From Dehalococcoidia bacterium (GTDB taxonomy: Bacteria > Chloroflexota > Dehalococcoidia > Lucifugimonadales > UBA3495), in the NCBI GenBank assembly GCA_965232895.1, contig OZ247430.1, forward strand, positions 3,456,122 to 3,520,121: 64,000 bases of DNA, written 5' to 3'. Shown here one piece after another: positions 989 through 23,755 of this stretch. The position numbers and the translations under genes are program-made. Position 1 is the first letter of the stretch; the number at the start of each line of letters is the position of its first letter. Below the pieces are notes generated by a model that saw only the letters and a program-made list of their open reading frames with translations, had not been told where the DNA came from and did not search any database.

Positions 989-1753
989 ATGTATATACTC
1001 TATCTGGATGAGTCTGGTGCCCATGGCGAAGCCAGCCACTTCGTGCTCGCCGGCCTTGCTGTGTTCGAACGGGAAATCCATTGGTTCAGTCAGGATCTGG
1101 ATGCCCTACAGCGGGAGTTTTTACCTAACGAAACTGGACCCGTTTTCTTCCACGCTTCGCAACTACGAACAAGGGTCAACGACAACGTCGAGGCACCTTG
1201 GGACAAACTGACGGTGGAACAGCGCCGGGAATTGAAGGACCGGGTGTACGATGTTATACGGACGAGAAGGGCGGTCCTTTTTGCCTGTGCGGTGGACAAA
1301 TCGTACGCCGGCCTCCGTAACGAAGATCCGTATGAACGAGCATTTGAGGATCTGATAAGCAGGTTTGATTTGTTCATGAGTCGGGCAAACCGACAAGCGA
1401 TTGCCGAAGGTTCTGGGGAGCAACGTGGTTTGGTCGTGCTGGCCGAGTCGAGTTATCAAAAAACGCTAGCTCTTTTGGCACAGAGGCTTCGGCAGGAAGG
1501 CACCAGATGGCGCAACCTGCATAACGTGACTGATATTCCATACTTCGCTCCGGCACGAGATACCCGATTGCTCCAATATGCGGATTTTTGTGCAAATGCC
1601 ATTTACGGACGATACCACTCCAAACTCACTGGTGATTTCGACCGAATCGCTCACAAATTCGACATGGAGTCAGGAGTGGTCCACGGATTGGCACATCTCA
1701 CCAGGGACTCATCATGTGTCTGTTTGGCTTGCTTCAGCAGGCACGATCGCTGA
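989..1753 (+). CDS. DUF3800-family protein
   Basis: The N-terminus MYILYLDESG matches the DUF3800 signature as I recall it. The gene is visibly more AT-rich than its flanks. Confidence 0.6.
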   Translation: MYILYLDESGAHGEASHFVLAGLAVFEREIHWFSQDLDALQREFLPNETGPVFFHASQLRTRVNDNVEAPWDKLTVEQRRELKDRVYDVIRTRRAVLFACAVDKSYAGLRNEDPYERAFEDLISRFDLFMSRANRQAIAEGSGEQRGLVVLAESSYQKTLALLAQRLRQEGTRWRNLHNVTDIPYFAPARDTRLLQYADFCANAIYGRYHSKLTGDFDRIAHKFDMESGVVHGLAHLTRDSSCVCLACFSRHDR

Positions 1754-8481: not shown

Positions 8482-8997
8482 GTGGCGCTGGCCCTGTTCG
8501 CAATCGTGGCCATCTTCACCCTCGGCGGCGCCGTGGGCGTGGTGGCGACTCGTAACGTGGTCCACGCGGCGCTGTTCCTGCTGCTGTCGTTGTTGGGCGC
8601 GGCCGGCGCGTACCTGCTGCTGTTCGCCGAGTTTCTGGCGTTGGTGCAGGTCCTCATCTACGGCGGCGCCGTGACCATCGTCGTGTTGTTCGCGGTGATG
8701 CTGACGCGATCCTCGGAATATCCCCGTATCACTGACAACAAACAATGGCCGCTGGGCTTGATAACGGCCACGGTTCTGGCGGTGGTGCTGGGCGCGGCTT
8801 TCTGGCTGGCTCCCGACGTGGTGGCAGAGCCCCAGGCGCCGGTGTTCACGGAACTGGGCGCTTCCCTGTTCACCAAGTGGGCGCTACCTTTCGAGATCGC
8901 GTCCCTGGTGCTCCTGGTGGCTCTCATCGGGGCCATCATCATCGCCCGAACGCAGAACGTGGCGCAAGGCGAAACGTCCACGGAAGGCGAGGGATAG
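8482..8997 (+). CDS. nuoJ: NADH-quinone oxidoreductase subunit J
   Basis: Hydrophobic; AEFLALVQVLIYGGAVTIVVLFAVML is typical of NuoJ; position in the operon. Confidence 0.9.
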   Translation: MALALFAIVAIFTLGGAVGVVATRNVVHAALFLLLSLLGAAGAYLLLFAEFLALVQVLIYGGAVTIVVLFAVMLTRSSEYPRITDNKQWPLGLITATVLAVVLGAAFWLAPDVVAEPQAPVFTELGASLFTKWALPFEIASLVLLVALIGAIIIARTQNVAQGETSTEGEG

Positions 8998-9004
8998 CCA
9001 CGCG

Positions 9005-9325
9005 ATGGTGCCCCTCCTGTACTTCCAGCTCCTGGGCGCGGCCCTGTTCGGCATCGGTTTCTATGGTGTCCTCGCGCGCCGCAGCGCGGTGCTCATCGTG
9101 TTGTCCATCGAGCTGATGCTGAACGCCGTCAACATCAACCTCATCGCGGCCGCGTCCTACCTGAATGGCACGGGACGTTTCGCCGCCTTCGACGGCCAGA
9201 TCATCGCGATCTTCGTCATCACGGTGGCGGCGGCGGAGGTCGGATTGGCCTTCGCCATTATCCTGCGGATGTATCGCAACCGCGGGACCGTAAACGTCGA
9301 CGAAATCAACCTGCTGAAGTGGTGA
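9005..9325 (+). CDS. nuoK: NADH-quinone oxidoreductase subunit K
   Basis: LSIELMLNAVNINLIA...AAAEVGLAFAIIL. Confidence 0.92.
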   Translation: MVPLLYFQLLGAALFGIGFYGVLARRSAVLIVLSIELMLNAVNINLIAAASYLNGTGRFAAFDGQIIAIFVITVAAAEVGLAFAIILRMYRNRGTVNVDEINLLKW

Positions 9326-9326
9326 T

Positions 9327-11264
9327 ATGCCGCTGGCATTCCTGATCCCAGTCTTCTCCTTCGCCGCCTGCCCGCTGATCATCCTGTTCCAGCGCTGGCT
9401 GCCGTTGCGAGGCGCTCCGCTGGCCATCCTGGCCATCGGCGGCGGTTTCGTCGTGTGGGCGCTGACGACGGTGAGTTTCCTGGGCGCGTCCGCTGACGAC
9501 CCCGCCTGTGCGGTCAGCGGCATCACCGGCGCTTTGACCTGCCATTTCTCCACGTCGTGGTTCGAGGCGGGACTACCCGGCGTCGCCGCGAACGTTGACC
9601 AGGCGATCCACCTGGAATGGGGGATCATCATCGACCCGCTGACGGTGGTGCTCCTGGGACTGGTCACCTTTGTTGCCCTGGGCGTCCAGCTGTATTCCCT
9701 GGAATACATGAAGGGAGACCCGCGCTTCGGGTGGTACTTTGCCTGGCAGGCCCTGTTCGTAGCGGCGATGCTGACCCTGGCGCTGGCCGACAACTTCCTG
9801 CTGCTGTACATCGCGTGGGAGCTGGTGGGCCTGTGCTCCTACCTGCTCATCGGGTTCTGGTTTGAAAACCCCGGCCCGCGAGAGGCCGCGAAGAAAGCAT
9901 TTGTGGTGACCCGGATCGGCGACGTCGGCCTGCTGGTGGGCATCCTGCTCCTGTGGGTCAACGTGGGCAGCTTCAGCATGACGGACGCCTTTGCCGCTGC
10001 CGCGTCCGGCGAGTTGGGCAGCGGCGTCACCACCGCCGCCGCAATCCTCCTGCTGCTGGGCGCCATGGGCAAGTCGGCGCAGTTCCCCTTCCACGTGTGG
10101 CTGCCCGACGCCATGGAGGGCCCCACGCCCGTCAGCGCGCTCATCCACGCGGCGACCATGGTGATCGCCGGCGTGTACCTGGTGGCCCGTGCTTACCCGA
10201 TCTTCGCCGCGTCTCCCGAAGCCATGATGATCGTCGCCGTCGTCGGGTTGATCACCGCCCTGGGCGCGGCGACCATCGCGCTGGTGTCCACCGACCTGAA
10301 GCGGATCCTGGCGTATTCCACCGTATCGCACCTGGGCCTGATGATGCTCTCGCTGGGGGCGTTCGGGTGGACGGCGGCGGTGTTCCACCTGATGGCTCAC
10401 GGCTTCGCGAAAGCCCTGTTGTTCCTGGGGGCGGGAAGCGTCATGCACGGCGTCGGCGCCCACGGCGACGTGGACATCCGCCGCGTCGGCGGCCTGCGCC
10501 GGGCGATGCCCGTAACGGCGGTCGTGTTCTCCATCGGCGCGCTGTCCCTGGGCGGAATTCCGATCCTGGCCGGGTTCTGGAGCAAGGACGAAATCCTGAT
10601 CGCGGTGGAGCACAACCTGCCCGTGATATTCATCGTCCTGACGATGCTCACCGCGTTCCTCAGCGCGCTGTACATGGCCCGCGCCATGTTCGTGGTGTTC
10701 TTCGGACCCGAGGGCGAGGACAGCCACCACGCCCACGAATCGCCCCTGCTGATGACCGGCGTCATGTCGGCGCTGGCGGTGCTGGCGATCGGGTTCGGCT
10801 GGATCGCGTTCAACTGGCCGGGCAGTTTCGACGGCATTGGTGGCTTTGTTTTCTATGACCACGCGGAGAAGTTCCACTTCAACTACGTGCTGGGAGCGCT
10901 GTCGATAATCCTGGCGGTGGGCGCGTTTGTTCTCGCGTGGCTGATTTACGTGCGCCGGGCGATCTCCCACGAACCGTGGCGAGCCCGTTTTGCGGTGATC
11001 CTCCGGGTTGTGGAACGGCGGTATTACGTGGATGAGGCCTACCAGTGGGCCATTGACCGGGTGATACTCACCGTGTCGGCGGCCCTTGCTTTCTTCGACC
11101 GCGCCGTGGTCAACGACGTGGCAGTCAACGGCCCCGCCGACATCGTACGCAAGGCCGGCGTTGCGTTGCGGCTCCACGTCACCGGTCACGTCTATTCTTA
11201 CGCCCTGGCCGTGGCGCTGGGCGTGATCGGGCTGGCGATTTTCTGGTGGCTGCGGTCCGTATAG
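9327..11264 (+). CDS. nuoL: NADH-quinone oxidoreductase subunit L
   Basis: WELVGLCSYLLIGFW...GKSAQFPFHVWLPDAMEGPTPVSALIHAATMV. Confidence 0.95.
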   Translation: MPLAFLIPVFSFAACPLIILFQRWLPLRGAPLAILAIGGGFVVWALTTVSFLGASADDPACAVSGITGALTCHFSTSWFEAGLPGVAANVDQAIHLEWGIIIDPLTVVLLGLVTFVALGVQLYSLEYMKGDPRFGWYFAWQALFVAAMLTLALADNFLLLYIAWELVGLCSYLLIGFWFENPGPREAAKKAFVVTRIGDVGLLVGILLLWVNVGSFSMTDAFAAAASGELGSGVTTAAAILLLLGAMGKSAQFPFHVWLPDAMEGPTPVSALIHAATMVIAGVYLVARAYPIFAASPEAMMIVAVVGLITALGAATIALVSTDLKRILAYSTVSHLGLMMLSLGAFGWTAAVFHLMAHGFAKALLFLGAGSVMHGVGAHGDVDIRRVGGLRRAMPVTAVVFSIGALSLGGIPILAGFWSKDEILIAVEHNLPVIFIVLTMLTAFLSALYMARAMFVVFFGPEGEDSHHAHESPLLMTGVMSALAVLAIGFGWIAFNWPGSFDGIGGFVFYDHAEKFHFNYVLGALSIILAVGAFVLAWLIYVRRAISHEPWRARFAVILRVVERRYYVDEAYQWAIDRVILTVSAALAFFDRAVVNDVAVNGPADIVRKAGVALRLHVTGHVYSYALAVALGVIGLAIFWWLRSV

Positions 11265-11300
11265 AGTTTGCTGGCATGACGCAATATTGCTATCCCAGCG

Positions 11301-11385
11301 CCACGTCGTTATTCCCGCGAAAGCGGGAATCCAGTGCGTCGTTGCGCAACGGCATTCCGGTTTCCGGCTTCGGCCGGAATGACGC
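11301..11385. repeat. Two REP-like hairpin modules in the nuoL-nuoM spacer
   Basis: attcccgcgaaagcgggaat (11311..11330) and cattccgg...ccggaatg (11353..11381). Both match the internal hairpins of the MITE at 24894 and 39678. Confidence 0.6.
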
Positions 11386-11394
11386 TCGCTGATT

Positions 11395-12915
11395 TTGGTC
11401 ATGGGGAATTTCGACCAGGTATCCCTGCTGCTCTTGGTGCTGGTGCCACTGGCCGGCGCGGCGCTGGCCATGTTCCTGCCCAAGGACCGCCCGCGGGATG
11501 CGTGGCAGTTCGCCATCTTTGTCGCTGTCGCGTGCTTCGTCCTTTCGGTCATCGTGTTCCTGCGCTACGACTACGGGGCCGGCGGCGTCCAGATGGTGCG
11601 GGCCTACGACTGGATCGGGCACCCGGTCAACATAACGCTGCACTTCGGGCTCAACGGCATCGGCGCGCCGTTGGTGCTCTTGAACGGTATCGTGCTGCTG
11701 GGCGCGGTGCTGATCAGCCAGACCATCACCCGGCGGACGCGGGATTTCTTCGTCCTGCTCCTCGCCCTCGGCGCCGGTGTGTTCGGCGTGTTCGTGGTGC
11801 GCGACCTGTTCTTCCTGTTCTTCTTCTATGAGCTGGCCGTGCTGCCCATGTACCTGCTGATCGGCGTTTGGGGCAGCAGCACCGACTTCGGCAGCTTCCT
11901 GCGGACCAAGGAATACGGCGCGATGAAGCTGATGCTGATGCTGGTGGCCGGCAGCATCCTGATTTGGGTGGGCATCCTGGCGCTGTACGTCGCATCATCG
12001 CAGGCGGGCGACCCCACCTTCAACATCGACAAGCTGGCCGCGTTGCAGCAGAGCGGAGCGGTTTCCCGCCTCACGCAGCTGTGGGTGTTCCCCTTCTTTG
12101 CGCTGGGTTTCGGCGTGCTGGCCGGCCTGTGGCCCTTCCATACCTGGTCGCCCGACGGTCACGTCGCCGCGCCCACCGGCGTCAGCATGCTGCACGCCGG
12201 CGTGCTGATGAAACTGGGAGCCTTCGGCATCATCCAGGTGGGCATGATCCTCGCGCCGCAGGGCGCGGAGGTGTGGATGCCGGTGCTGATCGGCCTGGGC
12301 ACGGTGAACGTCATCTACGGCGCGATTTCCGCCCTGTCCCAGAACGACCTCAAGTACGTCATCGGCTATTCCAGCGTCAGCCACATGGGTTACGTGCTCA
12401 TGGGCATTGCCACGCTGCACCCGGTGGGACTGGCCGGCGCGGTGCTCCAGATGTTCTCCCACGGGATAATGACGGCCCTGATGTTCGCCATGGTGGGAGC
12501 CATTTACGAGCGAGCCCACATCCGCGACAGCATGATCCTGAACGGCCTCATCAAGCGCATGGGAACGACCACGTTCTTCTTCGCCATCGCCGGCCTGGCA
12601 TCCCTGGGTCTCCCCGGGCTGAGCGGGTTCATCGCCGAATTCATGGTGTTCACCGGGGCCTTCCGCACCTACCTGCCGCTGGCGGTGCTGGGCGTCATCG
12701 GCGCGGCCATCACCGCGGTGTACATCCTGCGTCTCCTGGCCCGTTCCTTCTTCGGCGAGGGCGACCCGCAGTGGGACCACCTCACCGACGCCAGCCCGGT
12801 GGAAAAGGGAGTGGGCGCTGCGTTCGTGCTCATTTTGATTGCGGTGGGCGTCTGGCCCGCCCCGCTGCTGCGGGTCATCAACACCGGCGTGGCAAGCGCG
12901 CTGGCCGCGTTTTAG
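11395..12915 (+). CDS. nuoM: NADH-quinone oxidoreductase subunit M
   Basis: FHTWSPDGHVAAPTGVSMLHAGVLMKLGAFG...YSSVSHMGYVLMG. Confidence 0.95.
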   Translation: MVMGNFDQVSLLLLVLVPLAGAALAMFLPKDRPRDAWQFAIFVAVACFVLSVIVFLRYDYGAGGVQMVRAYDWIGHPVNITLHFGLNGIGAPLVLLNGIVLLGAVLISQTITRRTRDFFVLLLALGAGVFGVFVVRDLFFLFFFYELAVLPMYLLIGVWGSSTDFGSFLRTKEYGAMKLMLMLVAGSILIWVGILALYVASSQAGDPTFNIDKLAALQQSGAVSRLTQLWVFPFFALGFGVLAGLWPFHTWSPDGHVAAPTGVSMLHAGVLMKLGAFGIIQVGMILAPQGAEVWMPVLIGLGTVNVIYGAISALSQNDLKYVIGYSSVSHMGYVLMGIATLHPVGLAGAVLQMFSHGIMTALMFAMVGAIYERAHIRDSMILNGLIKRMGTTTFFFAIAGLASLGLPGLSGFIAEFMVFTGAFRTYLPLAVLGVIGAAITAVYILRLLARSFFGEGDPQWDHLTDASPVEKGVGAAFVLILIAVGVWPAPLLRVINTGVASALAAF

Positions 12916-12927
12916 GCGGTTAACGGA

Positions 12928-14484
12928 ATGCCAATCGACTACACCGCCAACCTCCACCTGCTGACGCCGGAGTTCGTCCTGACGGCACTGGCCTTCCTGG
13001 TGTTCACGGTGGACCTGTTCCTGCCCGAGAGCAGGAAGGAATGGCTGGCTGGCCTGTCGGTGGTCAGCCTGGTGGCCGTGATGGTTGTCGCCATTCTCAT
13101 GCGTCCGTCCGGTTCCGTTGAGCTTTACGGCGGGCTGATCGTCGTCGACAGTTTCGGCCTGTTCTTCAAGATATTCTTCCTGGCCATCGGCGTCGGGATC
13201 ATCGCGCTGTCAGTGGAGTACGGGCGCGATCGCTTCGAGTATCGCGGCGAGTTCTACGGGCTGCTGCTGTTCTCCATCCTGGGCATGAACCTGATGGCCA
13301 TGTCCCGGGAACTGCTCACCGCCTACATCGCCCTGGAGCTGCTGTCCTTCAGCCTGTACGTCATGGTGGCCTACGGACTGCGCGAGGCGCGCTCCAACGA
13401 GGCTGGCATCAAGTACATCATCATCGGCGCGCTGTCGTCGGCCATCATGCTTTACGGGCTGAGCAACATCTACGCGGCGCTGGGAACCACATTCTTCGCC
13501 GGCATCGCCGAGGAATTGGCGTTGCCGGGCACGGTGAGTCCAGTCCTGTGGGTAGGTGTCGCGCTGCTGGTGGTGGGCCTCGGGTTCAAGCTCTCCGCAG
13601 TGCCTTTCCACATGTGGGCCCCCGACGCCTACGAGGGCGCGCCGCTGCCGGTGACAGCGTATCTCGCCATTGGATCCAAGGCGGCCGCGTTCGCGTTGAC
13701 CCTGCGCCTGTTCGCGGAGGCCATCGTTCCCGCCGTAGATCGCTGGGACGAGTGGCAGCTGGTCATCGCCGTGCTGGCTGCCATCACCATGCTGCTGGGC
13801 AACCTGGTGGCGCTGGCCCAGCGGAACCTGAAGCGGCTGATGGCCTACAGCAGCATCGGACACGTGGGCTACGCGCTGGCCGGCATCGCGGTGCTGGGCA
13901 ACGATTTTGCCCTGGCCGCCAAGTCGGTGGTGTTCTACCTGGTGGTGTACGCCGTGACCAACCTGGTGGTGTTCGCCGGCGTCACCGCCTACTACAACCG
14001 CACCGGGCAGGACAACATTGCGGACCTGGCCGGTCTGGCCGACCGGCAGCCCTTTGTCGCCGCTGCCATCGCCATCGGCCTGTTCTCCCTGGCGGGACTG
14101 CCCATTTTCGCCGGGTTCACCGCCAAGTTCTACCTGTTCGCGGCCGTGGCCGACGGCGGTTTCCTGTGGCTGGCCGGCGTCGCGATTTTCGCCAGTCTCA
14201 TCTCCCTGTACTACTACCTGCAGGTGCTCCGCCAGATGTACATCGAGCGGCCGGCCAACCCTGACCACGCGCAAGACGGGCACGAATCCGCCGAAGACCA
14301 CGGCGAGACCCACGGCCACGGCGGCCACGAGGAACCGACGGTTGCGCCGATGCCCCGTCCGTCATTGCTGCTCACGGCCACCATGGGCGCCGGTCTGCTG
14401 GTGGTGGTCTGGTTGGGAATCTACCCCGCCCCGCTGCTGGGCCTGATCGACGCGGCCAGCGCGGCCATCGTGCCGCTGGGATAG
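12928..14484 (+). CDS. nuoN: NADH-quinone oxidoreductase subunit N
   Basis: FKLSAVPFHMWAPDAYEGAPLPVTAYL...MAYSSIGHVGY; last gene of the cluster. Confidence 0.93.
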   Translation: MPIDYTANLHLLTPEFVLTALAFLVFTVDLFLPESRKEWLAGLSVVSLVAVMVVAILMRPSGSVELYGGLIVVDSFGLFFKIFFLAIGVGIIALSVEYGRDRFEYRGEFYGLLLFSILGMNLMAMSRELLTAYIALELLSFSLYVMVAYGLREARSNEAGIKYIIIGALSSAIMLYGLSNIYAALGTTFFAGIAEELALPGTVSPVLWVGVALLVVGLGFKLSAVPFHMWAPDAYEGAPLPVTAYLAIGSKAAAFALTLRLFAEAIVPAVDRWDEWQLVIAVLAAITMLLGNLVALAQRNLKRLMAYSSIGHVGYALAGIAVLGNDFALAAKSVVFYLVVYAVTNLVVFAGVTAYYNRTGQDNIADLAGLADRQPFVAAAIAIGLFSLAGLPIFAGFTAKFYLFAAVADGGFLWLAGVAIFASLISLYYYLQVLRQMYIERPANPDHAQDGHESAEDHGETHGHGGHEEPTVAPMPRPSLLLTATMGAGLLVVVWLGIYPAPLLGLIDAASAAIVPLG

Positions 14485-14530
14485 CTACCGCTTTGGTGAG
14501 TCATGCCTACACCGAGATCAGAGCATCAAA

Positions 14531-15298
14531 TTACGCCGCCAATTCATCGCGCACTGCTTCGCGTTGCGTCCACGGAACCGGGAGCACATCGTAATTCCTT
14601 AGAGCTTCCTGCACGTTGCCAGATACGGATTGGTCGCTATCGTTGAGAAACGCATAGGTGCGAGAATCCGAAGGACGTATATCACGAGTATCGATATAGG
14701 AGAACACAATCGCTTGGGCGATGTCCCGGCTTGGACGGTTTACTGTCCGTAACAGGCGCTCCGGATGAGTACGTGATTTGGGGATAATAAAGTTGAACCG
14801 GTGGTCGTACCCGCTTTGCCCTTTGAGGGTCACGTCAGGGGTGTAACGTATGTCGCAGTCATCTAGCCATGCCGTGACGTCCTCCAGGAATAGGCTCGCC
14901 ACTGTCGACTGTGCCAAGTAAAAGAGATCGTTGACGGCCAGCATGGCTTGGAGGAGATTGTGCTTGCGGACCGCGAAATTGGCTGATCCCGCTTGGACTT
15001 CTAAACGGCGATTTTCAACAAGTTCTACGCCGAAACCCCTTAGTGTGATAGCAAGAATCTCTTGTCGCCGAGGCGTGTCGATGGGGCAGCCGGACATCTC
15101 TAGGTCGTCCAAAGTAAACCCATCATCAGTCAACAAAAACCCATCGCCTGATTTTGTCGCATATATCTGGATATAATCATTGTGCCGGTCCAGATGCGGC
15201 GTCGTAATCTCGTACCAACTGTCGATTTGGCGTAGGGTGGTCTTGTCCTTCAACCAATCCCAATATCGGTCTAGCAAGACTTGGATGTCGTCGTTCAT
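14531..15298 (-). CDS. DUF1828/DUF1829-like two-domain protein
   Basis: WYEITTPHLDRHNDYIQIY matches my recollection of the DUF1828 N-domain, and the C-terminal half looks DUF1829-like. The gene is more AT-rich than nuoN. Confidence 0.55.
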   Translation of the reverse strand: MNDDIQVLLDRYWDWLKDKTTLRQIDSWYEITTPHLDRHNDYIQIYATKSGDGFLLTDDGFTLDDLEMSGCPIDTPRRQEILAITLRGFGVELVENRRLEVQAGSANFAVRKHNLLQAMLAVNDLFYLAQSTVASLFLEDVTAWLDDCDIRYTPDVTLKGQSGYDHRFNFIIPKSRTHPERLLRTVNRPSRDIAQAIVFSYIDTRDIRPSDSRTYAFLNDSDQSVSGNVQEALRNYDVLPVPWTQREAVRDELAA

Positions 15299-15894
15299 TT
15301 GAACAACTCCCGCCTGATGTTGGGTGCGTCAGTCACGTTGGTGAACTTCAAAAAGTCCAGCAGCGTTTGCCAAGTGTCGCTCACATCAGAAAAGTGCTCG
15401 CTTGGCGCAGGAACCGCCCACTTGTCAGCGTATCCCTCAACATAAACATGCAAATGCGGTGCGGGGACTTCAACATCGTCTGGGTTGCGATGTGGAGGTC
15501 CTCCAATATCGAGCCGCGCGAGGATTACAGAACGTCGTGCTCGGTTTTGGAAGGTGTTTTTGGTCAGATTGATCCGACCACGGTACAGGTCCAACGAAAA
15601 GTTTTCACGGCCGTCCATTGATTCTAGCGGAATGATCGCTTTCCCCCCGGTGTATGGGAAACGCCATTGGTTGTCATTGACTTTGCGCTTTTCTACCGCG
15701 AGAAGGGCGTCCGCAATAGCTTGAGCCAAAAGGATGCCTGCCACATTGATCCCCCGGTGATGAGATAGAATTGGCCCTCGTAAGCTCTCCGATTGCCAAT
15801 CGCGCCGGCAGTCTATTACGTGTGTTAGGAAATGCACAAGCGTCGCGATTCTCGCATGGCCACTGCTGCAGTCCTTGGACACTCGACCGAGCAA
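15295..15894 (-). CDS. Hypothetical protein with GGPPHRNPD...PHLHVYVEGY motif (possibly DUF6978-like)
   Basis: ATGA overlap with the downstream gene. The ORF-track start is TTG 15894. GTG 15744, preceded by GGGGA, would give about 149 aa. Confidence 0.5.
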   Translation of the reverse strand: MLGRVSKDCSSGHARIATLVHFLTHVIDCRRDWQSESLRGPILSHHRGINVAGILLAQAIADALLAVEKRKVNDNQWRFPYTGGKAIIPLESMDGRENFSLDLYRGRINLTKNTFQNRARRSVILARLDIGGPPHRNPDDVEVPAPHLHVYVEGYADKWAVPAPSEHFSDVSDTWQTLLDFLKFTNVTDAPNIRRELFK

Positions 15895-15975
15895 CTGTCC
15901 CGAACTCAGGGTGGTTGGCTTGATGTCAGACGAATGACGATGGGGAATATGGGCAGACTGACTTCACAGGAGCAA

Positions 15976-16513
15976 ATGAGCACAATGATCATCGCAGTTA
16001 TCGGCAACTACGACCCGCCACCCCACGTTTACGCTCTCGCTGAGGGCGTCGGCCAGGAGCTGGCCCGACGCGGCATCACGCTGGTGTGCGGCGGTCTCAC
16101 CGGAGTGATGGAAGCGGTGTGCAAGGGGGCAAAGTCGGAGAACGGCGCCACCATCGGCATCCTGCCCGGCGGGTCGCCGCGCTCGGCCAACGAGTGGGTG
16201 GACTTTCCCGTTGCCACCAACATGGGGTTCGCCCGGAACGTGGCGGTGGTCAGCACCGGACAGGCGGTAATCGCCGTTGGCGGCGCGTTCGGAACCCTGT
16301 CGGAAATCGCCTACGCCCTCAGTTACGGCATACCGGTGGTCTCGCTGCACAGCTGGCCGCTGACCCTGCGTGGCGACGGCCTGCCCGTGGGCGACAATTA
16401 CATCATCGCCGATGACCCGGTTGACGCCGTGGACAAGGCGGTGGCCGCGGCCCTGGCCCGCACCGACGAAACCCAGACCGTCGCCTTCTCCGAACCCCTG
16501 CCGGAGGTGCCAA

Positions 16514-16521
<8 letters not shown>
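15976..16521 (+). CDS. TIGR00725/LOG-like (SLOG superfamily) Rossmann protein
   Basis: IAVIGNYDP...[17 protein letters not shown]...[20 protein letters not shown] 15976 has an AGGAG RBS. Earlier starts would overlap the divergent gene. Confidence 0.7.
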
Positions 16522-17818
<1,297 letters not shown>

Positions 17819-17868
17819 ATCAGCGTTCCGTGGCGGTGTTAAGGCCCGGCCCGGATTTGCCTTTTCGG

Positions 17869-17877
17869 TGGTATAAT
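17869..17877 (+). promoter_or_regulatory. Candidate extended -10 element (TGGTATAAT) upstream of gap
   Basis: tggtataat sits about 127 nt upstream of the gap start in the eno-gap spacer. No clear -35 element. Confidence 0.3.
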
Positions 17878-18003
17878 CGCGGACGCCGGCAGGGTCTAAT
17901 CGACCGCGAGAATCTCGCCGCCGCCGGCTGGACGGCACGTATATCGCGTGCTTTGCCTGTCACTGCAATTGGCCACGCTTGAACTGACGGGAGGCATTCC
18001 ACG

Positions 18004-19011
18004 ATGGCGACGCGCATCGGTATCAATGGGTTCGGGCGGATCGGACGTCTGGTCGCTCGGGCGGCGCTTTCACCTACGTACCACGACCGGCTCGATCTGG
18101 TCGCAGTCAACGGACTGGGAGACTCCGATACCGCTGCCCACCTTTTCAAGTACGACAGCACCTACGGCCCGTATGCCGGCGCCGTGGGGACCGATAATGG
18201 GAACATCGTCATCGATGGCAAGTCGATCCGCAAGTTCCAGGAATCGGAGCCGGCCAACATTCCCTGGTCGGAGATGGGCGTCGACATCGTCGTGGAATGC
18301 ACCGGCCACTTCACCGACGCCGCGAAAGCGGCGGCACACATCGAGAGCGGCGGCGCCAACAAGGTCATCATCTCCGCTCCGGCGCGTGGCGCGGACGCCA
18401 CCATTGTGCTTGGCGTGAATGACGAGATATACGACGATGGCGAGCACCGGATCATCTCCAACGCCTCCTGCACTACCAACTGCTTCGCGCCCATGGTCAA
18501 GGTCCTGCACGACGCTTTCGGCGTTGAGCGGGGCCTGATGTCCACCATCCACGCCTACACCAACGACCAGAGCATCCTGGACCGCAACCACCGGGACCTG
18601 CGCCGGGCCCGGGCCGCCGCGCAGAACATCATCCCCACCAGCACCGGCGCGGCCCGCTCCGTGGGTGTAGTGCTGCCCGAATTGAACGGCAAGCTCCACG
18701 GCATCGCCTACCGCATCCCCACGTCCGTCGGTTCCGCCACCGACTTCGTGGCAGACCTCAAGCAGAACGTCACTAAGGACGAGGTCAACGCCGCTTTCAG
18801 GGCCGCCGCCGAAGGCCCGCTCAAGGGCATCCTCGAATATACCGAGGACCCCATCGTCAGCTCCGATATCCGCGGCAACACGCACAGCTGCGTCTTCGAC
18901 GGCCTGAGCACCATGGTCCTGGACGACAGCATGGTCAAGATCCTGGGCTGGTACGACAACGAGTGGGGATACTCGTGCCGCACCGCCGACCTGTGCTGCC
19001 TGATTTCGTAG
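18004..19011 (+). CDS. gap: Glyceraldehyde-3-phosphate dehydrogenase
   Basis: INGFGRIGRLV...SNASCTTNCFAP...WYDNEWGYS. Confidence 0.97.
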   Translation: MATRIGINGFGRIGRLVARAALSPTYHDRLDLVAVNGLGDSDTAAHLFKYDSTYGPYAGAVGTDNGNIVIDGKSIRKFQESEPANIPWSEMGVDIVVECTGHFTDAAKAAAHIESGGANKVIISAPARGADATIVLGVNDEIYDDGEHRIISNASCTTNCFAPMVKVLHDAFGVERGLMSTIHAYTNDQSILDRNHRDLRRARAAAQNIIPTSTGAARSVGVVLPELNGKLHGIAYRIPTSVGSATDFVADLKQNVTKDEVNAAFRAAAEGPLKGILEYTEDPIVSSDIRGNTHSCVFDGLSTMVLDDSMVKILGWYDNEWGYSCRTADLCCLIS

Positions 19012-19024
19012 TGATTCCTGGCGG

Positions 19025-22000
19025 TTGATGCGTTCACCACCCATGGACGCCCGGCGGCTTCGCTGGTTAGCCCCCCTGCGCAGGCTGTGGGGGCCTAATT
19101 TTCTGTTGCCCGCGCTGCTGATCGCCGCGCTGGCCCTGCGCTTGTACGGCATCGACTGGGACGATGGCCACGGATTCCACCCGGACGAGCGGTCGTTCTA
19201 CCTGCGCGCCGACGACATGTTCCGCGTGCTCACCGAAGCGCCGGGACACGAGACCTGGCTGGCGGAGTGGCCCGAAATGCGGGCCGGCTTGCCCGACATT
19301 GGGACCGCGCTGTCAGCAGAGCATAGCCCTCTCAACCCACACTGGTTCCCGTTGGGCAGCGTTCTGATCTACGCGCTGGTGCTCATCCGGTCAGTGGCCG
19401 AGTTGTTCACTGACTGGGGCGCCATGGACATGCGGTTCGCCGGAAGGACGCTGGCCGCCCTGGCCGATACGGCGTCGGTGTTCCTCGTGTTCGCAATCGG
19501 ACGTCGGATGTACGGACGCTGGACCGGCCTACTGGCAGCCGCCCTAACCGCGTTCGCGGTCATCCACATCCAGCACGCTCACTTCTACCGTCCGGAACCG
19601 TTCACTGTGCTCACGTCGCTGGCGGCATTGTGGGCCATGCTCCGGTTGATGGACACGGCTCGGATGCGTGATGCCGCCCTGTTGGGCCTGCTCGTGGGCC
19701 TGGCCATGGCTCCCAAGGTGTCGGTCGCGCCAATACTGGCGCCTCTTTTCCTGGTGTTCCTGTGGACCTGGAAGGACCGGGCCGGCGGCCGCTGGACGGA
19801 TCTGACGGTGTGGTCCGCCGTCCTCTTCGCGCCGACAGTATTGCTGGCCGGAGTGCTGGCGTTGGCCGCGTTTTTCATTACCACTCCGTATGCGTTCCTC
19901 GATTTCAGCGCCTTTGTCTCCGACATCCGGGCGCAAGCAGAAATGGCGCGGGAGGCCGGCCACTGGCCCTTCACCTGGCAATACGCCGATACGCCGGCGT
20001 TCTGGTACCAGATCCGGCAGACGTCGATTTGGGGTTTGGGATTGCCGCTGGGCGTCGTCGCCTGGGTCGCGGCCCCGTTCACCGCGTGGATGGCCTGGCG
20101 GGGAGGAGTCTCGCAGCGCTCCGACCTTCTGTTGCTGGCCTGGGCCGTGCCGGCGTTCGTGTTCCTGGAGTTGTTCGAGGTCAAGTTCCTGCGGTATGTG
20201 TTCCCGCTCATGCCCTTCTACGTGCTCATGGGGGCGCGCATGCTGGTCTGTTTCATAGAATGGACGCAGCGGCAGCGTTCCCGCATTCCGGGAGATGTGT
20301 CCCCTCCGCCCGACGACGCGCCCTTCTCGGAGGAATGGCACGCCACGCCGCCCACCATCGGCGACGATCTGATCTTCGACGAGCCGCTCTTCGGCGATGA
20401 TGCGCCGTTCTCGGAGGAGTGGCACGCCACGCCGCCCACCGGAGGCATGCTGGTGTCGGCCACCGGGCGGCCGGTGGACTCTGACGCCCCGGCAGACCAT
20501 ATGCCCGCGCGTTGGCAACTGTTTGCGGACAGGGGTCGGCGGTACGCTTATCCGGTCAGCGTCGCGGCGCTGGTCATTGTCGTCGCGTCAACGGTCCTGT
20601 ACGCCCTCGCTTTTTCCAGTATCTACAGTCGGCCTCACACTGCGGTCACGGCGGCGGAGTGGATCAACGCCAACGTGCCGCCCGGCGCGTCCATCATCAA
20701 CGGTGGCTCCTTCTGGGACGAGCGCATACCCGACCTCGGCAGGTACGATGTGTGGACGTTTGCCGCCTATAATCCCGACGATGACCGCGGCAAAATCCCC
20801 GATCTAATTGGTCGCCTGTCCTCCAGTGATTACGCGGTCTTCTATTCGAACCGCGCCTACGGGTCGGTGGCCCGGCTGCCCGACGAGTACCCACAGAGTT
20901 CGGCGTTCCTCCACCTGTTTTTCGCCGGAGACTTGGGTTACCGGCTGGAGCGGTCATTCTCCTCATATCCCTCGCTGGCCGGCTTCAAACTGCGGGACGA
21001 CCCCTATGGCCGCGCCGGTCTCCCCGCGCCGCGTGGCGCTGACGGCGGCCGTTCGGAAGCGCGGGCCGGCTTCGGGTTGAACCTGGGGTACGCCGACGAA
21101 AACGTCATCGCGTATGACCACCCGCAGGTGCTGGTGTTCCGAAACGCGGATCGCCTGACTTCCAGTGAAATCAGGTCGCGCATCGAAGACGCGACGGCAC
21201 GGCGAGAGGATACCCCGCAACTGATGCTGCCGCCCGACGCGATGTACGCACAGCAGAGCGGCGGCACCTGGTCGGAGGTGTTCCGGCGGGACGGTTGGGC
21301 CAACCGGGTGCCGTGGCTGAGCTGGTTCCTGGCGCTGGAACTCATTTGCCTGGTTGCCTTCCCGCTGACCTGGTGGATCCTGCGTCCGCTGCACGACCGG
21401 GGACTGCTGTTTTCCCGGGTGGTGGGATTGCTCCTGGTGGCGTGGGTGGTGTGGCTGTTGGTGAACTCCGGCGCTGTCCAGTTTTCGCTGGGAGCCATAA
21501 TTTTCGCCATGCTGATCGTGGCGATACCATCGGCGGCGCTCCTGGCGGCTCGTTGGCGGGAAATGGCCGGATGGCTGCGGGAACACTGGCGCATGGTCGT
21601 CGTCGCCGAGGCGCTGTTCATCCTGGCGTACCTGGCCTTCGTGCTGATCCGAGCGGCCAATCCGGACCTGTGGCACCCGTGGCGCGGCGGCGAAAAGCCC
21701 ATGGAGCTGGCCTATTTCACTGCGGTAGCCCGTTCCTCGGTGCTGCCGCCCTACGATCCGTGGTTTGCCGGCGGGTACCTGAACTACTACTACTGGGGCT
21801 ACTTCATCCTGTCCATTCCCACGCGCCTGACCGGCATCCCGCCGGTAACGGCGTTCAACCTGGCCGTTCCGACCCTCTTTGCCCTGACGGCCACTGGCGC
21901 CGGCGCCCTGGCGTATTACTTCGTCAAAGCGGCCGGCGGGGATCGTGCGGAAGCCTTGTCGCCTAATCCGTCAGATCGCAGTTGGACTCGAATGTTTCCA

Positions 22001-23755
22001 TGGCGGCGCATGCGACGATGGTTGCCCGGCGGCGCGGCAGTAGTGGGTCTGGCGTCAGCAGTGATGGTTGCAGTTACCGGCAACCTCGACGGGGCAGTTC
22101 AGCTTTTTCACATCCTGTCGGCCAGGGTCAACGGCATGGCCGCGCCCCTGTCGAGTTTCGATTTCTGGCGCAGCAGCCGCGCCATACCGGAGATCCCGAA
22201 CTTTGAGCCCAACGCACTGACCCCGTGGCTGGAATCGCGTGACCATGTCGACCTCGGGTTTCACATCACCGAGTTCCCGTATTTCACCTTCCTCTTTGCT
22301 GACCTCCATGCCCACATGATGACCATGCCCTTCGCGCTGCTCGCGTTGGCGCTGGGGTTCGCGACGCTGGTGGGCGTGTCGAAGAGCGGGCCGAAGAGTA
22401 TCTGGACGTGGCTGTGCGCCGCCCTGATGGGGCTGGCGGTGGGCAGCCTGTGGACCATCAACTCCTGGGAATATCCGGCGTACGCCATGCTCATGGTCGG
22501 GTTCGCGGTGGCCGCGGCATGGATGATGGCCGGCGAACTAAAGGCGCGGCTGGCCCTGGGATTAGGCTTGGCAGTGGTGGCCGTGGTGGTGAGTTACGTC
22601 GCCTTCATCCCGTTCCATACCGCAACCGAGACGTTCGGCACCGGTATCGAACCGACTCGCTGGCGCACTCCGTTGACTAACTACCTGCTCATCCACGCAT
22701 TGCCGGTTTTGGCGGCATTTGCGCTGCTGGCGGCGATTTTGCCCCGAGCCTGCGCCCCGCTGCTGGCACGGATCAGATCGGCGACGCCGGTTCCGGCGGC
22801 GCACCAGTGGCTCCTGCTGGGCGTGTTGGCCGGCGTCGCGCTGGCGTGCTACTTCTGGGCGGCGGGCTACCTGACCGCCGGAGCGCTCATGGTCCTGCTG
22901 ACGCTGGTGTGTTGGTCGCTGGCCGCTACGCTGCTGGACGGCCATGAACCGACCGACCGGTCCGACGTGGCGGCGTTGGGCATGCTTGCCGTCGCCCTGG
23001 GCATCGGCATCGGCGTGGACTTCGTGCGCGTCGAGGGTGACATCGCCCGCATGAACACCCTATTCAAGTACTACCTGGTGGCGTGGCTGCTGTTCGGCGT
23101 AGCCGGGGCGTACGGCTTCTGGAGAGGTTGGACGGCGTGGCGTTCTCATCAGAGATTCTTCGGCAGTTTGCTGCGCCTTTCGTTCTCCCAGGTGGTCGCT
23201 ATAGTCGCGGTCGGGGTGATGATATACCCGGCGCTGGCGACGCCCGCGCGTATCCAGGACCGATTCCACTCCACGCCGTTGACTCTGGACGGCGCCGCGT
23301 GGATGCCCGACGCCGTCCACTGGGAGCGTGACGAGCCCATCGAATTGCGCTGGGACGCCGACGCCATCCGCTGGTTGCAGGATAACGTCTCAGGAACCCC
23401 GGTGGTCCTGGAGGCCCACGGCGACCAGTACCGCTGGAATGGCCGGATGTCGGTGTACACTGGGCTGCCCACCGTGATCGGCTGGCCGTGGCACCAGACC
23501 CAGCAGCGCAACGACTGGGACCTGATAAGGGCGCGGGCGCGGGACGTGTCGACCATCTACAACACCCTCAGCAAGAAGGAGGCATTAGACCTGATCGACC
23601 AGTACCGCGTGCGCTACATCGCGGTGGGCGACTTGGAGCAGATCTACTATCTTCCGGACGGCATCAAAAAATTCGAGCAGATGGTTGAGGCCGGCACTCT
23701 CGAATTGGCCTACGCCAACGACCGGACCACTCTCTACCGCGTTGTGCACAGGTAG
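19025..23755 (+). CDS. Very large polytopic membrane protein, Chlor_Arch_YYY/DUF2298-type with a GT39-like N-terminal region
   Basis: 1576 aa with many TM segments and FAGGYLNYYYWGYF (YYY motif). The N-terminus resembles PMT/ArnT-type glycosyltransferases. Confidence 0.8.
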   Translation: MMRSPPMDARRLRWLAPLRRLWGPNFLLPALLIAALALRLYGIDWDDGHGFHPDERSFYLRADDMFRVLTEAPGHETWLAEWPEMRAGLPDIGTALSAEHSPLNPHWFPLGSVLIYALVLIRSVAELFTDWGAMDMRFAGRTLAALADTASVFLVFAIGRRMYGRWTGLLAAALTAFAVIHIQHAHFYRPEPFTVLTSLAALWAMLRLMDTARMRDAALLGLLVGLAMAPKVSVAPILAPLFLVFLWTWKDRAGGRWTDLTVWSAVLFAPTVLLAGVLALAAFFITTPYAFLDFSAFVSDIRAQAEMAREAGHWPFTWQYADTPAFWYQIRQTSIWGLGLPLGVVAWVAAPFTAWMAWRGGVSQRSDLLLLAWAVPAFVFLELFEVKFLRYVFPLMPFYVLMGARMLVCFIEWTQRQRSRIPGDVSPPPDDAPFSEEWHATPPTIGDDLIFDEPLFGDDAPFSEEWHATPPTGGMLVSATGRPVDSDAPADHMPARWQLFADRGRRYAYPVSVAALVIVVASTVLYALAFSSIYSRPHTAVTAAEWINANVPPGASIINGGSFWDERIPDLGRYDVWTFAAYNPDDDRGKIPDLIGRLSSSDYAVFYSNRAYGSVARLPDEYPQSSAFLHLFFAGDLGYRLERSFSSYPSLAGFKLRDDPYGRAGLPAPRGADGGRSEARAGFGLNLGYADENVIAYDHPQVLVFRNADRLTSSEIRSRIEDATARREDTPQLMLPPDAMYAQQSGGTWSEVFRRDGWANRVPWLSWFLALELICLVAFPLTWWILRPLHDRGLLFSRVVGLLLVAWVVWLLVNSGAVQFSLGAIIFAMLIVAIPSAALLAARWREMAGWLREHWRMVVVAEALFILAYLAFVLIRAANPDLWHPWRGGEKPMELAYFTAVARSSVLPPYDPWFAGGYLNYYYWGYFILSIPTRLTGIPPVTAFNLAVPTLFALTATGAGALAYYFVKAAGGDRAEALSPNPSDRSWTRMFPWRRMRRWLPGGAAVVGLASAVMVAVTGNLDGAVQLFHILSARVNGMAAPLSSFDFWRSSRAIPEIPNFEPNALTPWLESRDHVDLGFHITEFPYFTFLFADLHAHMMTMPFALLALALGFATLVGVSKSGPKSIWTWLCAALMGLAVGSLWTINSWEYPAYAMLMVGFAVAAAWMMAGELKARLALGLGLAVVAVVVSYVAFIPFHTATETFGTGIEPTRWRTPLTNYLLIHALPVLAAFALLAAILPRACAPLLARIRSATPVPAAHQWLLLGVLAGVALACYFWAAGYLTAGALMVLLTLVCWSLAATLLDGHEPTDRSDVAALGMLAVALGIGIGVDFVRVEGDIARMNTLFKYYLVAWLLFGVAGAYGFWRGWTAWRSHQRFFGSLLRLSFSQVVAIVAVGVMIYPALATPARIQDRFHSTPLTLDGAAWMPDAVHWERDEPIELRWDADAIRWLQDNVSGTPVVLEAHGDQYRWNGRMSVYTGLPTVIGWPWHQTQQRNDWDLIRARARDVSTIYNTLSKKEALDLIDQYRVRYIAVGDLEQIYYLPDGIKKFEQMVEAGTLELAYANDRTTLYRVVHR
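20312..20440 (+). repeat. Internal 45-nt coding duplication (DDAPFSEEWHATPPT x2, 84-nt period)
   Basis: 20312..20356 and 20396..20440 encode the same 15 aa with a few synonymous differences. Confidence 0.85.

Follow-up and report, generated by a model that had tools for sequence, protein, structure and literature searches.

A horizontally acquired two-gene islet of the candidate phage-defence family PDC-M24 in a Dehalococcoidia genome

A stretch of 64,000 nucleotides (nt) from a Dehalococcoidia bacterium (GenBank assembly GCA_965232895.1, contig OZ247430.1, positions 3,456,122 to 3,520,121; hereafter the window, meaning this whole stretch) carries a low-GC islet of two genes, here called A and B, between nuoN and a gene of SLOG cluster 4 (the 'LOG-like' gene, LOG for short). 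The pair is a further member of PDC-M24, a catalogued and experimentally uncharacterised family of candidate phage-defence systems; PADLOC would flag the locus, and its assignment is unsurprising to a specialist. The islet is an insertion that was acquired horizontally, and A and B co-diverge and have passed together, by inheritance and by transfer, through many phyla, phages and plasmids. The chances seem to us evenly balanced that it serves as a two-gene defence or exclusion module against phages or other mobile elements. New here are the proof of an empty site, a corrected start for gene A, co-occurrence assessed in both directions together with co-divergence, the split of the family into embedded and solo copies, the copies found in the lysogeny modules of prophages, and the residue sets conserved over deep divergence.

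Both products were identified by profile searches. In Pfam, A is a DUF6978 protein (E = 2.4e-42), and B combines DUF1828 (residues 33-122; 3.6e-24) with DUF1829 (residues 160-246; 1.7e-28); NCBIfam holds no model for either. In PADLOC-DB, A matches the PDC-M24A model PDLC04538 (8.4e-54, 3-145 of 146 model positions) as well as four further PDC-M24A models, and B matches the PDC-M24B model PDLC04539 over its full length (1.7e-100, 1-255 of 255). In addition, both proteins match PHROG families without known function (phrog_5059 for B, 3e-67). PDC systems are 145 untested phage defence candidates, either single-gene (S) or multi-gene (M), that were collected by guilt-by-embedding from gene cassettes lying in BREX, DISARM and type I restriction-modification (R-M) loci (Payne, Hughes, Fineran and Jackson, 2024, bioRxiv 10.1101/2024.01.29.577857). 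PDC-M24 appears in the supplementary table of that study as cassette CAS_00098, FAM_00129>>FAM_00065, with a count of 153 (bioRxiv 10.1101/2024.01.29.577857). At the level of sequence the window copy agrees with it in the A profile, the B profile, and the adjacency, shared strand and A-then-B order of the genes, with matches that run end to end. It differs in being unembedded, as a solo islet between nuoN and the SLOG gene: the window contains no hsd homolog, so the feature through which the PDC systems were discovered is absent here. A PADLOC call of PDC-M24 does not need embedding, and the family as a whole displays it in the independent survey described below. A first-pass annotation of this DNA had already quoted sequence motifs that are indeed present in both products, had assigned DUF1828 and DUF1829, and had suggested a search for DUF6978, all of which agree with the profile matches. 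Its description of an uncharacterised candidate system did not take in that the pair had been catalogued before as a candidate. Membership of PDC-M24 itself says little on function, since a catalogue entry is a prediction.

That the islet (14485-15978, 1494 nt, no strand assigned) is an insertion follows from the empty site of a close relative. The 825-kb metagenomic contig L083 is 94.1% identical to the window at the nucleotide level over 8573-14484 and 92.1% identical over 15979-22519. In L083 only 82 nt (L083 5919-6000), including an intrinsic terminator, separate the nuoN stop from the LOG start, and in the window the 1494-nt islet stands in place of this ancestral spacer of about 82 nt. 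Twelve further relatives also have the site empty; across these 13, L083 included, the nuoN-LOG spacing is 83-250 nt. Among 80 metagenomic loci selected through LOG, A or B was found in none, most keep LOG next to eno, and 13 keep nuoN next to LOG. A more distant Dehalococcoidia metagenome-assembled genome (L001), with flanks 85-90% identical at the nucleotide level, carries the cassette at the same site (L001 9555-10768). With L083 empty and L001 and the window occupied, the cassette is thus a presence/absence polymorphism within the lineage. Empty-site spacers were aligned for a decision between loss and absence from the start in L083, and proved too diverged to discriminate.

Base composition gives the same picture. 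The GC content of the islet is 52.5%, compared with a mean of 63.2% (standard deviation 2.1, minimum 55.2) for the other 1494-nt segments of the window (z = -5.0). It is the lowest of the window, and the three lowest 1-kb segments all fall inside it. Third-codon-position GC is 0.59 in B and 0.57 in A, against 0.89 in nuoN, 0.91 in nuoM, 0.84 in the LOG-like gene and 0.85 in eno. The first-pass annotation had estimated about 50% GC for the cassette and about 70% for nuoN, and had named an ordinary composition, if properly computed, as grounds for giving up its proposal. Chance cannot account for the contrast, which is real, but the two figures were set a little too far apart, as nuoN has 65%. 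Among the signs of a horizontally acquired islet, atypical composition and presence or absence at a conserved site are therefore both found here, and marks of a mobility mechanism are not: around the cassette there are no flanking direct repeats, integrase, tRNA, Rfam match or terminators.

Purifying selection on the cassette is strong in this lineage: when the window is compared with L001, B has a ratio of non-synonymous to synonymous substitution rates (dN/dS) of 0.035 and A one of 0.081, values that exclude a decaying remnant. The synonymous distances themselves (dS 1.22 for B and 0.87 for A) are two to three times that of nuoN (0.44), and the nearer relative L083 has no cassette. Either weak codon bias inflates dS in the cassette, or its alleles predate the split of the hosts and were exchanged by recombination.

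The two genes lie on the minus strand. Gene A (15295-15744, minus strand) encodes 149 amino acids (aa) from a GTG start at 15744-15742 and corresponds to PDC-M24A; gene B (14531-15298, minus strand) encodes 255 aa from an ATG start and corresponds to PDC-M24B. The stop of A and the start of B share the ATGA at 15295-15298 (minus strand), exactly where the earlier reading of two overlapping minus-strand open reading frames (ORFs) had put it. Judged from the DNA alone, A and B are predicted to be co-transcribed and, through this overlap, translationally coupled. A putative ribosome-binding site of B (GGGAG, 15308-15312, minus strand) lies 8-9 nt upstream of its ATG, within the 3' end of A. The earlier reading had also extended the upstream gene to 15894, the limit of a maximal ORF of 199 aa with a TTG start, and this part has to be corrected. 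The Pfam and PADLOC models align only from residue ~54-56 of that ORF, and most DUF6978 homologs have 149 aa. Furthermore, a ribosome-binding site (GGGGGA, 15750-15755, minus strand; GGAGGA in L001) stands 5 nt upstream of the GTG, and L001 has an ATG at the matching position. The stretch upstream of that ATG is 67% conserved, as expected of non-coding DNA. Together, the alignment start, the homolog lengths, the ribosome-binding site and the L001 ATG place gene A at 15295-15744. A low-confidence candidate promoter of the A-B operon, TTGTGC-15 nt-TAATAG, may lie at 15813-15839 (minus strand). Its two hexamers fall in the only well-conserved blocks of the A-LOG intergenic region, which is 67% identical between the window and L001; a consensus promoter scan did not call the pair.

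The relationship of A and B was examined in both directions. A scan with a B alignment over one genome per species returned 584 relatives, and the counts for B-selected loci given here refer to the best 80. These come from Chloroflexota, several classes of Pseudomonadota, Planctomycetota, Acidobacteriota, Nitrospirota, Bacillota, Bacteroidota, Myxococcota, Verrucomicrobiota and others. The distribution of the pair is patchy over more than 15 phyla, and outside Dehalococcoidia B is still 60-65% identical to the window protein. In 68 of the 80 loci A is the gene immediately before B, on the same strand and 0-15 nt away, so the co-occurrence of homologs on which the first-pass proposal had been made to depend is found. 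The other loci include three-gene variants in three cases and remnants of a disrupted A in two, and the latter count among the 11 of 80 that have B without A. Conversely, B follows A in all nine viral contigs that were found with an A alignment (down to 27% identity) and in all four chromosomal loci that were reached through A homologs, so A without B occurs in none of these 13 A-selected loci. Distant B homologs (23-56% identity) are carried by prophage Lj965, Staphylococcus phage 37, streptococcal Javan phages, the IncP-1 plasmid pRSB223, the Acetobacter plasmid pAOF1 and a Staphylococcus epidermidis plasmid, and an ORF of the DUF6978 family stands immediately upstream of B in all seven phage and plasmid examples examined. 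In addition, the A and B distance matrices over 80 pairs are strongly correlated (Mantel r = 0.909), a value reached by none of 999 permutations. Beyond these loci, B relatives form at least 6474 clusters at 90% identity (word-based search) and DUF6978 proteins about 1387 clusters at 50% identity (exhaustive search). The claim of a mobile, foreign and tightly coupled two-component module is accordingly upheld by the co-occurrence, the composition, the empty site and the PDC-M24 match.

Several loci depart from the plain two-gene form. The three-gene variants (L031, L033 and L078, ~8700-10762), all located in type I R-M operons, contain, in this order, a divergent DUF6978 gene, a divergent DUF1828/DUF1829 paralog and the canonical B. 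In the Vicinamibacteria loci L018 (8805-9959), L019 (3450-3656) and L040 (9471-10001), A is disrupted and B is intact. An unrelated protein of ~385 aa (beginning MRVSICDRGALS) is encoded directly upstream of B in L018, a sequence related to that protein is fused in frame to a C-terminal remnant of A in L040, and only a short C-terminal remnant of A is left in L019. The DUF6978 gene upstream of a DUF1828 gene is unannotated, or annotated too short, in pAOF1 (L173, 5519-5995), in Javan249 (L175, 1965-2444) and in the S. epidermidis plasmid (L177, 2504-2968). No informative fusions were found among DUF6978 proteins, nearly all of which are free-standing with 145-155 aa. The longer ones (P0288, P0327 and others) have N-terminal extensions that look like over-called starts, and P0287 is a read-through of A into B. 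An apparent fusion of B with HsdR (P0026) is an artefact of a frameshifted contig at 2x coverage.

The pair is concentrated where defence genes accumulate. Of the 80 B-selected loci, 58 are flanked by type I R-M (hsd) genes. Long flanks, of 5 kb or more on each side, are available for 54 of them, and 37 of these 54 have the genes on one strand in the order hsdM ... hsdS-[A-B]-hsdR. The distance from the B stop codon to the start of hsdR is 0-45 nt in about 20 loci. The family is thereby split into embedded (~69%) and solo (~31%) copies, and the window copy is of the solo type. The pair is also carried by a conjugative IncP plasmid, prophages and satellites. In temperate phages it lies between the integrase and the CI-type repressor, and once beside an annotated superinfection-exclusion gene. 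The first-pass annotation had proposed looking for enrichment of the homologs near defence genes, and the association with type I R-M operons and mobile elements is strong.

This position, which is also that of prrC, raises the rival of an accessory or guard role towards type I restriction enzymes in the manner of PrrC. The pair would, for example, sense the inhibition of HsdMSR by anti-restriction proteins and set off an abortive response, or it would control HsdR; the window copy would be idle, or an orphan dependent on an R-M system elsewhere in its genome. The close spacing of B and hsdR agrees with this, as does the precedent of PrrC itself, the anticodon nuclease of the type Ic locus EcoprrI, whose gene is embedded between hsdS and hsdR and which is activated when EcoprrI is inhibited. 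Furthermore, the identity that B keeps across phyla is unusually high for a defence protein, which fits contact with a conserved partner. However, no hsd gene accompanies the pair anywhere in the window, and none adjoins it in L001, in eight of the nine viral contigs or in any of the four A-selected chromosomal loci; no R-M genes surround the copies on prophages and plasmids, which are found in lysogeny modules or accessory regions. The site is also shared by many unrelated autonomous systems. One is TgvAB, a GmrSD-like two-gene system of VPI-2 in Vibrio cholerae that is embedded in a type I locus, acts autonomously and needs both genes (PMC11411939); others are GmrSD-like genes and a Gabija-like pair. 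Further Pfam-annotated cargo of defence type in hsdS-hsdR gaps includes an OLD-family ATPase/TOPRIM protein with a UvrD helicase, nucleotidyltransferase (NTase) subunits, and an M78/DUF4411 pair, the first being called Gabija-like by composition, on Pfam matches only. The gaps of L081 (8208-9493) and L082 (5924-9573) contain a Peptidase_M78 and DUF4411 pair, and an OLD/TOPRIM and UvrD pair directly upstream of A-B. Finally, searches of Pfam, NCBIfam and PADLOC revealed no homology to PrrC or RloC (ABC-type ATPase plus anticodon nuclease). The A-B family thus shares with PrrC its usual location and a possible role as a second line behind a type I enzyme, but resembles it in neither sequence nor domains; PrrC consists of one ATPase-nuclease protein that is almost only embedded, whereas the A-B pair is often solo or borne by phages and plasmids. 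Similarly, TgvAB resembles the family as a two-gene cassette within a type I R-M operon, but has DUF262/DUF1524 (GmrSD) nuclease domains and targets modified DNA, whereas A and B have no recognisable nuclease domain. On this evidence a guard that depends on a type I enzyme is unlikely.

The solo copies bear on a different rival, in which the pair works outside genetic conflict, for example as a small metabolic or regulatory enzyme pair or in the control of lysogeny, and is no more than a passenger of variable regions. Solo copies adjoin housekeeping genes (nuo, eno, prfA/prmC, cobalamin genes, dxs), and both A and B carry enzyme-like sets of invariant polar residues. The opposing evidence is that the pair is scattered over its many phyla at 60-65% identity and varies in presence between close relatives, has a foreign composition, is strongly associated with R-M embedding, and travels on prophages, satellites and plasmids; no metabolic neighbour co-varies with it. 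We therefore consider a role outside conflict highly improbable. Solo copies in several phyla also recur beside apparent prfA, prmC and phosphoglucomutase-family genes (RF-1 in four loci, PrmC_N in four, PGM_PMM in five). Such neighbourhoods are seen in L034, L046 and L062, with ORFs of ~1065, 900 and 1407 nt directly upstream of A, and in L057, and this suggests a second preferred insertion site.

In the favoured reading of a defence or exclusion module of the PDC-M24 family, a specific division of labour between A and B can be sketched, which we hold to be much less probable than the defence reading itself. A would be the effector, a small protein with an enzyme-like polar cluster in which the near-invariant K19, R77, H85-x-N87-P-D89 and H97-x-H99 hint at a metal- or ligand-dependent active site. 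B would be its regulatory or sensor partner, whose acidic DUF1828 domain and DUF1829 would bind A and keep it inactive. Infection would disturb the A-B complex, and the freed A would stop phage growth, probably with some harm to the cell, as in abortive infection. Within a type I R-M operon, the pair would be a second line of defence that is expressed together with the R-M genes; from the solo copies it is clear that adjacent R-M genes are not strictly needed. The finding of B without A, and never of A without B, is as expected if A is harmful alone.

A precedent for this polarity is provided by the two-gene system PDC-M66, also known as DS-6 or HipAD, which consists of a HipA-like kinase and a DUF3037-DUF1829 protein and has been validated (PMC13092281, PMC12548924). 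There the DUF3037(-DUF1829) protein neutralises the HipA-like toxin encoded upstream of it, and its deletion is toxic (PMC13092281, PMC12548924); the role of DUF1829 within HipAD is itself only modelled. The two systems come from the same guilt-by-embedding catalogue, have two genes each, and share a downstream protein with DUF1829, with the upstream effector and downstream neutraliser being roles established for DS-6. They differ in that the upstream protein here is DUF6978 and not a kinase, and in that the N-terminal domain of B is DUF1828 and not DUF3037, so that DUF1829 alone is common to them.

The same precedent would also serve a plain toxin-antitoxin addiction module that stabilises mobile elements and R-M operons with no anti-phage role, since a DUF1829-containing protein neutralises the toxin in HipAD. 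Two small co-directional genes (149 and 255 aa) with a 4-nt overlap, carriage on plasmids, prophages and islets, and the occurrence of B without A but never the reverse would all be at home in such a module. Against it, A and B match no known toxin or antitoxin family and contain no helix-turn-helix, ribbon-helix-helix or AbrB DNA-binding domain, and typical type II toxin-antitoxin pairs consist of smaller and far less conserved proteins. Moreover, strong purifying selection has kept the copy intact at one chromosomal position in each of two diverged lineages, where addiction would bring no obvious benefit. A module of addiction alone is accordingly quite improbable in our view, and toxin-antitoxin function and defence are compatible rather than mutually exclusive.

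Structure prediction gave A as a confident model (AlphaFold2; predicted local distance difference test score, pLDDT, 87.8; predicted template modelling score 0.85) of seven short strands with an N-terminal and a C-terminal helix. A Foldseek comparison of this model with the PDB gave nothing significant (best E = 0.2, template modelling score, TM, <0.3). A PH/PTB classification, the top PDB match, was rejected at a TM of <0.3 and a root-mean-square deviation of >11 Å. In BFVD, a single uncharacterised phage protein was found (TM 0.54), which is probably a family member. A is neutral in charge. Residues conserved over 103 diverse family members are Q8, K19, S42, E47, D52, R68, R77, H85, N87, P88, D89, H97, H99, Y101, E103 and G104. 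K19, R77, H85, N87, H97, H99 and D107 are kept in the most distant members, with a streptococcal phage branch as an exception for H-x-H. Motifs of known enzyme classes were also considered for A. An HNH or His-Me finger reading was rejected, as the model lacks a helix after the hairpin, and so was the HIT motif HxHxH, whose third histidine is a tyrosine here and for which there is no fold match; the cupin motif HxHxxxE fits, again without a fold match.

For B, the AlphaFold2 model has a mean pLDDT of 62.7, with a fairly good N-terminal domain. The protein is acidic (isoelectric point 4.84; 4.68 for the N-terminal domain of ~125 aa). Its deeply conserved residues are E30, D37, D41, T57, D58, R78, Q117, D124, D140, N187, D203, R208, N219 and D220. 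The top Foldseek matches of the N-terminal domain are SicP, SpcU, InvB, YbjN/AmyR and the MotA C-terminal domain, all non-significant (E 0.1-1, TM 0.35-0.48 on the target). With type III secretion chaperones and YbjN the domain shares its small size, acidity and a similar alpha-beta-alpha-beta-alpha order, but at this level of match the resemblance is a lead and not a classification. The modelled domain may be chaperone-like in size, charge and approximate fold, which would argue indirectly for the polarity of A and B. A PD-(D/E)xK nuclease assignment for DUF1829 was rejected, as D165, K174 and E180 are invariant in a close clade only and are replaced in phage homologs. The family profiles of A and B gave no match to PDB sequences, and Pfam searches at E up to 10 with 25 and 24 family members gave no consistent weak matches.

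A number of observations weigh against a defence module built in this way. A and B match no known toxin, nuclease or antitoxin family and no PDB sequence or fold, which is why the effector and sensor roles are ones that we infer. The C-terminal domain of B has an unreliable model (pLDDT ~35-45, below 50). In the streptococcal phage branch, N-x-N replaces H97-x-H99 and H85-x-N87 is kept, which weakens the idea that H97 and H99 are catalytic. Just 13 A-selected loci underlie the contrast between B-only and A-only loci. Furthermore, solo copies, that of the window included, have housekeeping genes as neighbours and not defence islands. The literature is likewise sparse: a search for PDC-M24 found no paper, DUF6978 and DUF1828 are mentioned only in passing, and DUF1829 enters the functional literature only within DS-6B of HipAD/DS-6. 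The branch with N-x-N comprises Javan249 (L175, GNRINIF) and Javan642 (L178 1961-2449, GNRVNIF).

A bolder form of the defence reading, which seems improbable as it stands, would make DUF6978 a new kind of anti-phage effector with an unsolved fold, controlled by a chaperone-like DUF1828-DUF1829 sensor; the pair would monitor the type I complex, or the anti-restriction proteins directed at it, much like PrrC but through wholly unrelated proteins, and the solo copies would be guards that became free-standing. If PDC-M24 works in defence, a function would be gained for three widespread DUFs, together with an effector that is confidently modelled and lacks any structural relative in the PDB. The family also offers a test case for why cassettes settle between hsdS and hsdR, and whether this reflects co-regulation only or functional coupling. 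For this genome the case is ordinary, with one small imported defence-type islet.

On either side of the islet, the flanking genes are as follows. The nuoN gene (12928-14484, plus strand; 97% aa identity to L083) converges with B, and read-through from nuo would run antisense to B. L083 carries the hairpin GGGGGCGAATTTTTATTCGCCCC, an intrinsic terminator, after nuoN, which was lost in the window through the insertion; the window spacer between the nuoN and B stops (14485-14530, 46 nt) folds no better than shuffled sequence. The LOG-like gene (15985-16521, plus strand; PF18306, 3.1e-40) is divergent from A and is followed by eno. Its start is probably the ATG at 15985, since the ATG further upstream, at 15976, belongs to the inserted DNA and is not conserved, reading ATT in L001. 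A second low-GC islet (~900-1800, GC ~0.50-0.54), without a PADLOC match, holds the gene of a 254-aa DUF3800 protein (989-1753, plus strand; 2.2e-15) directly upstream of nuoA (1772-2185), so that a foreign-looking insert is present at both ends of the nuo operon.

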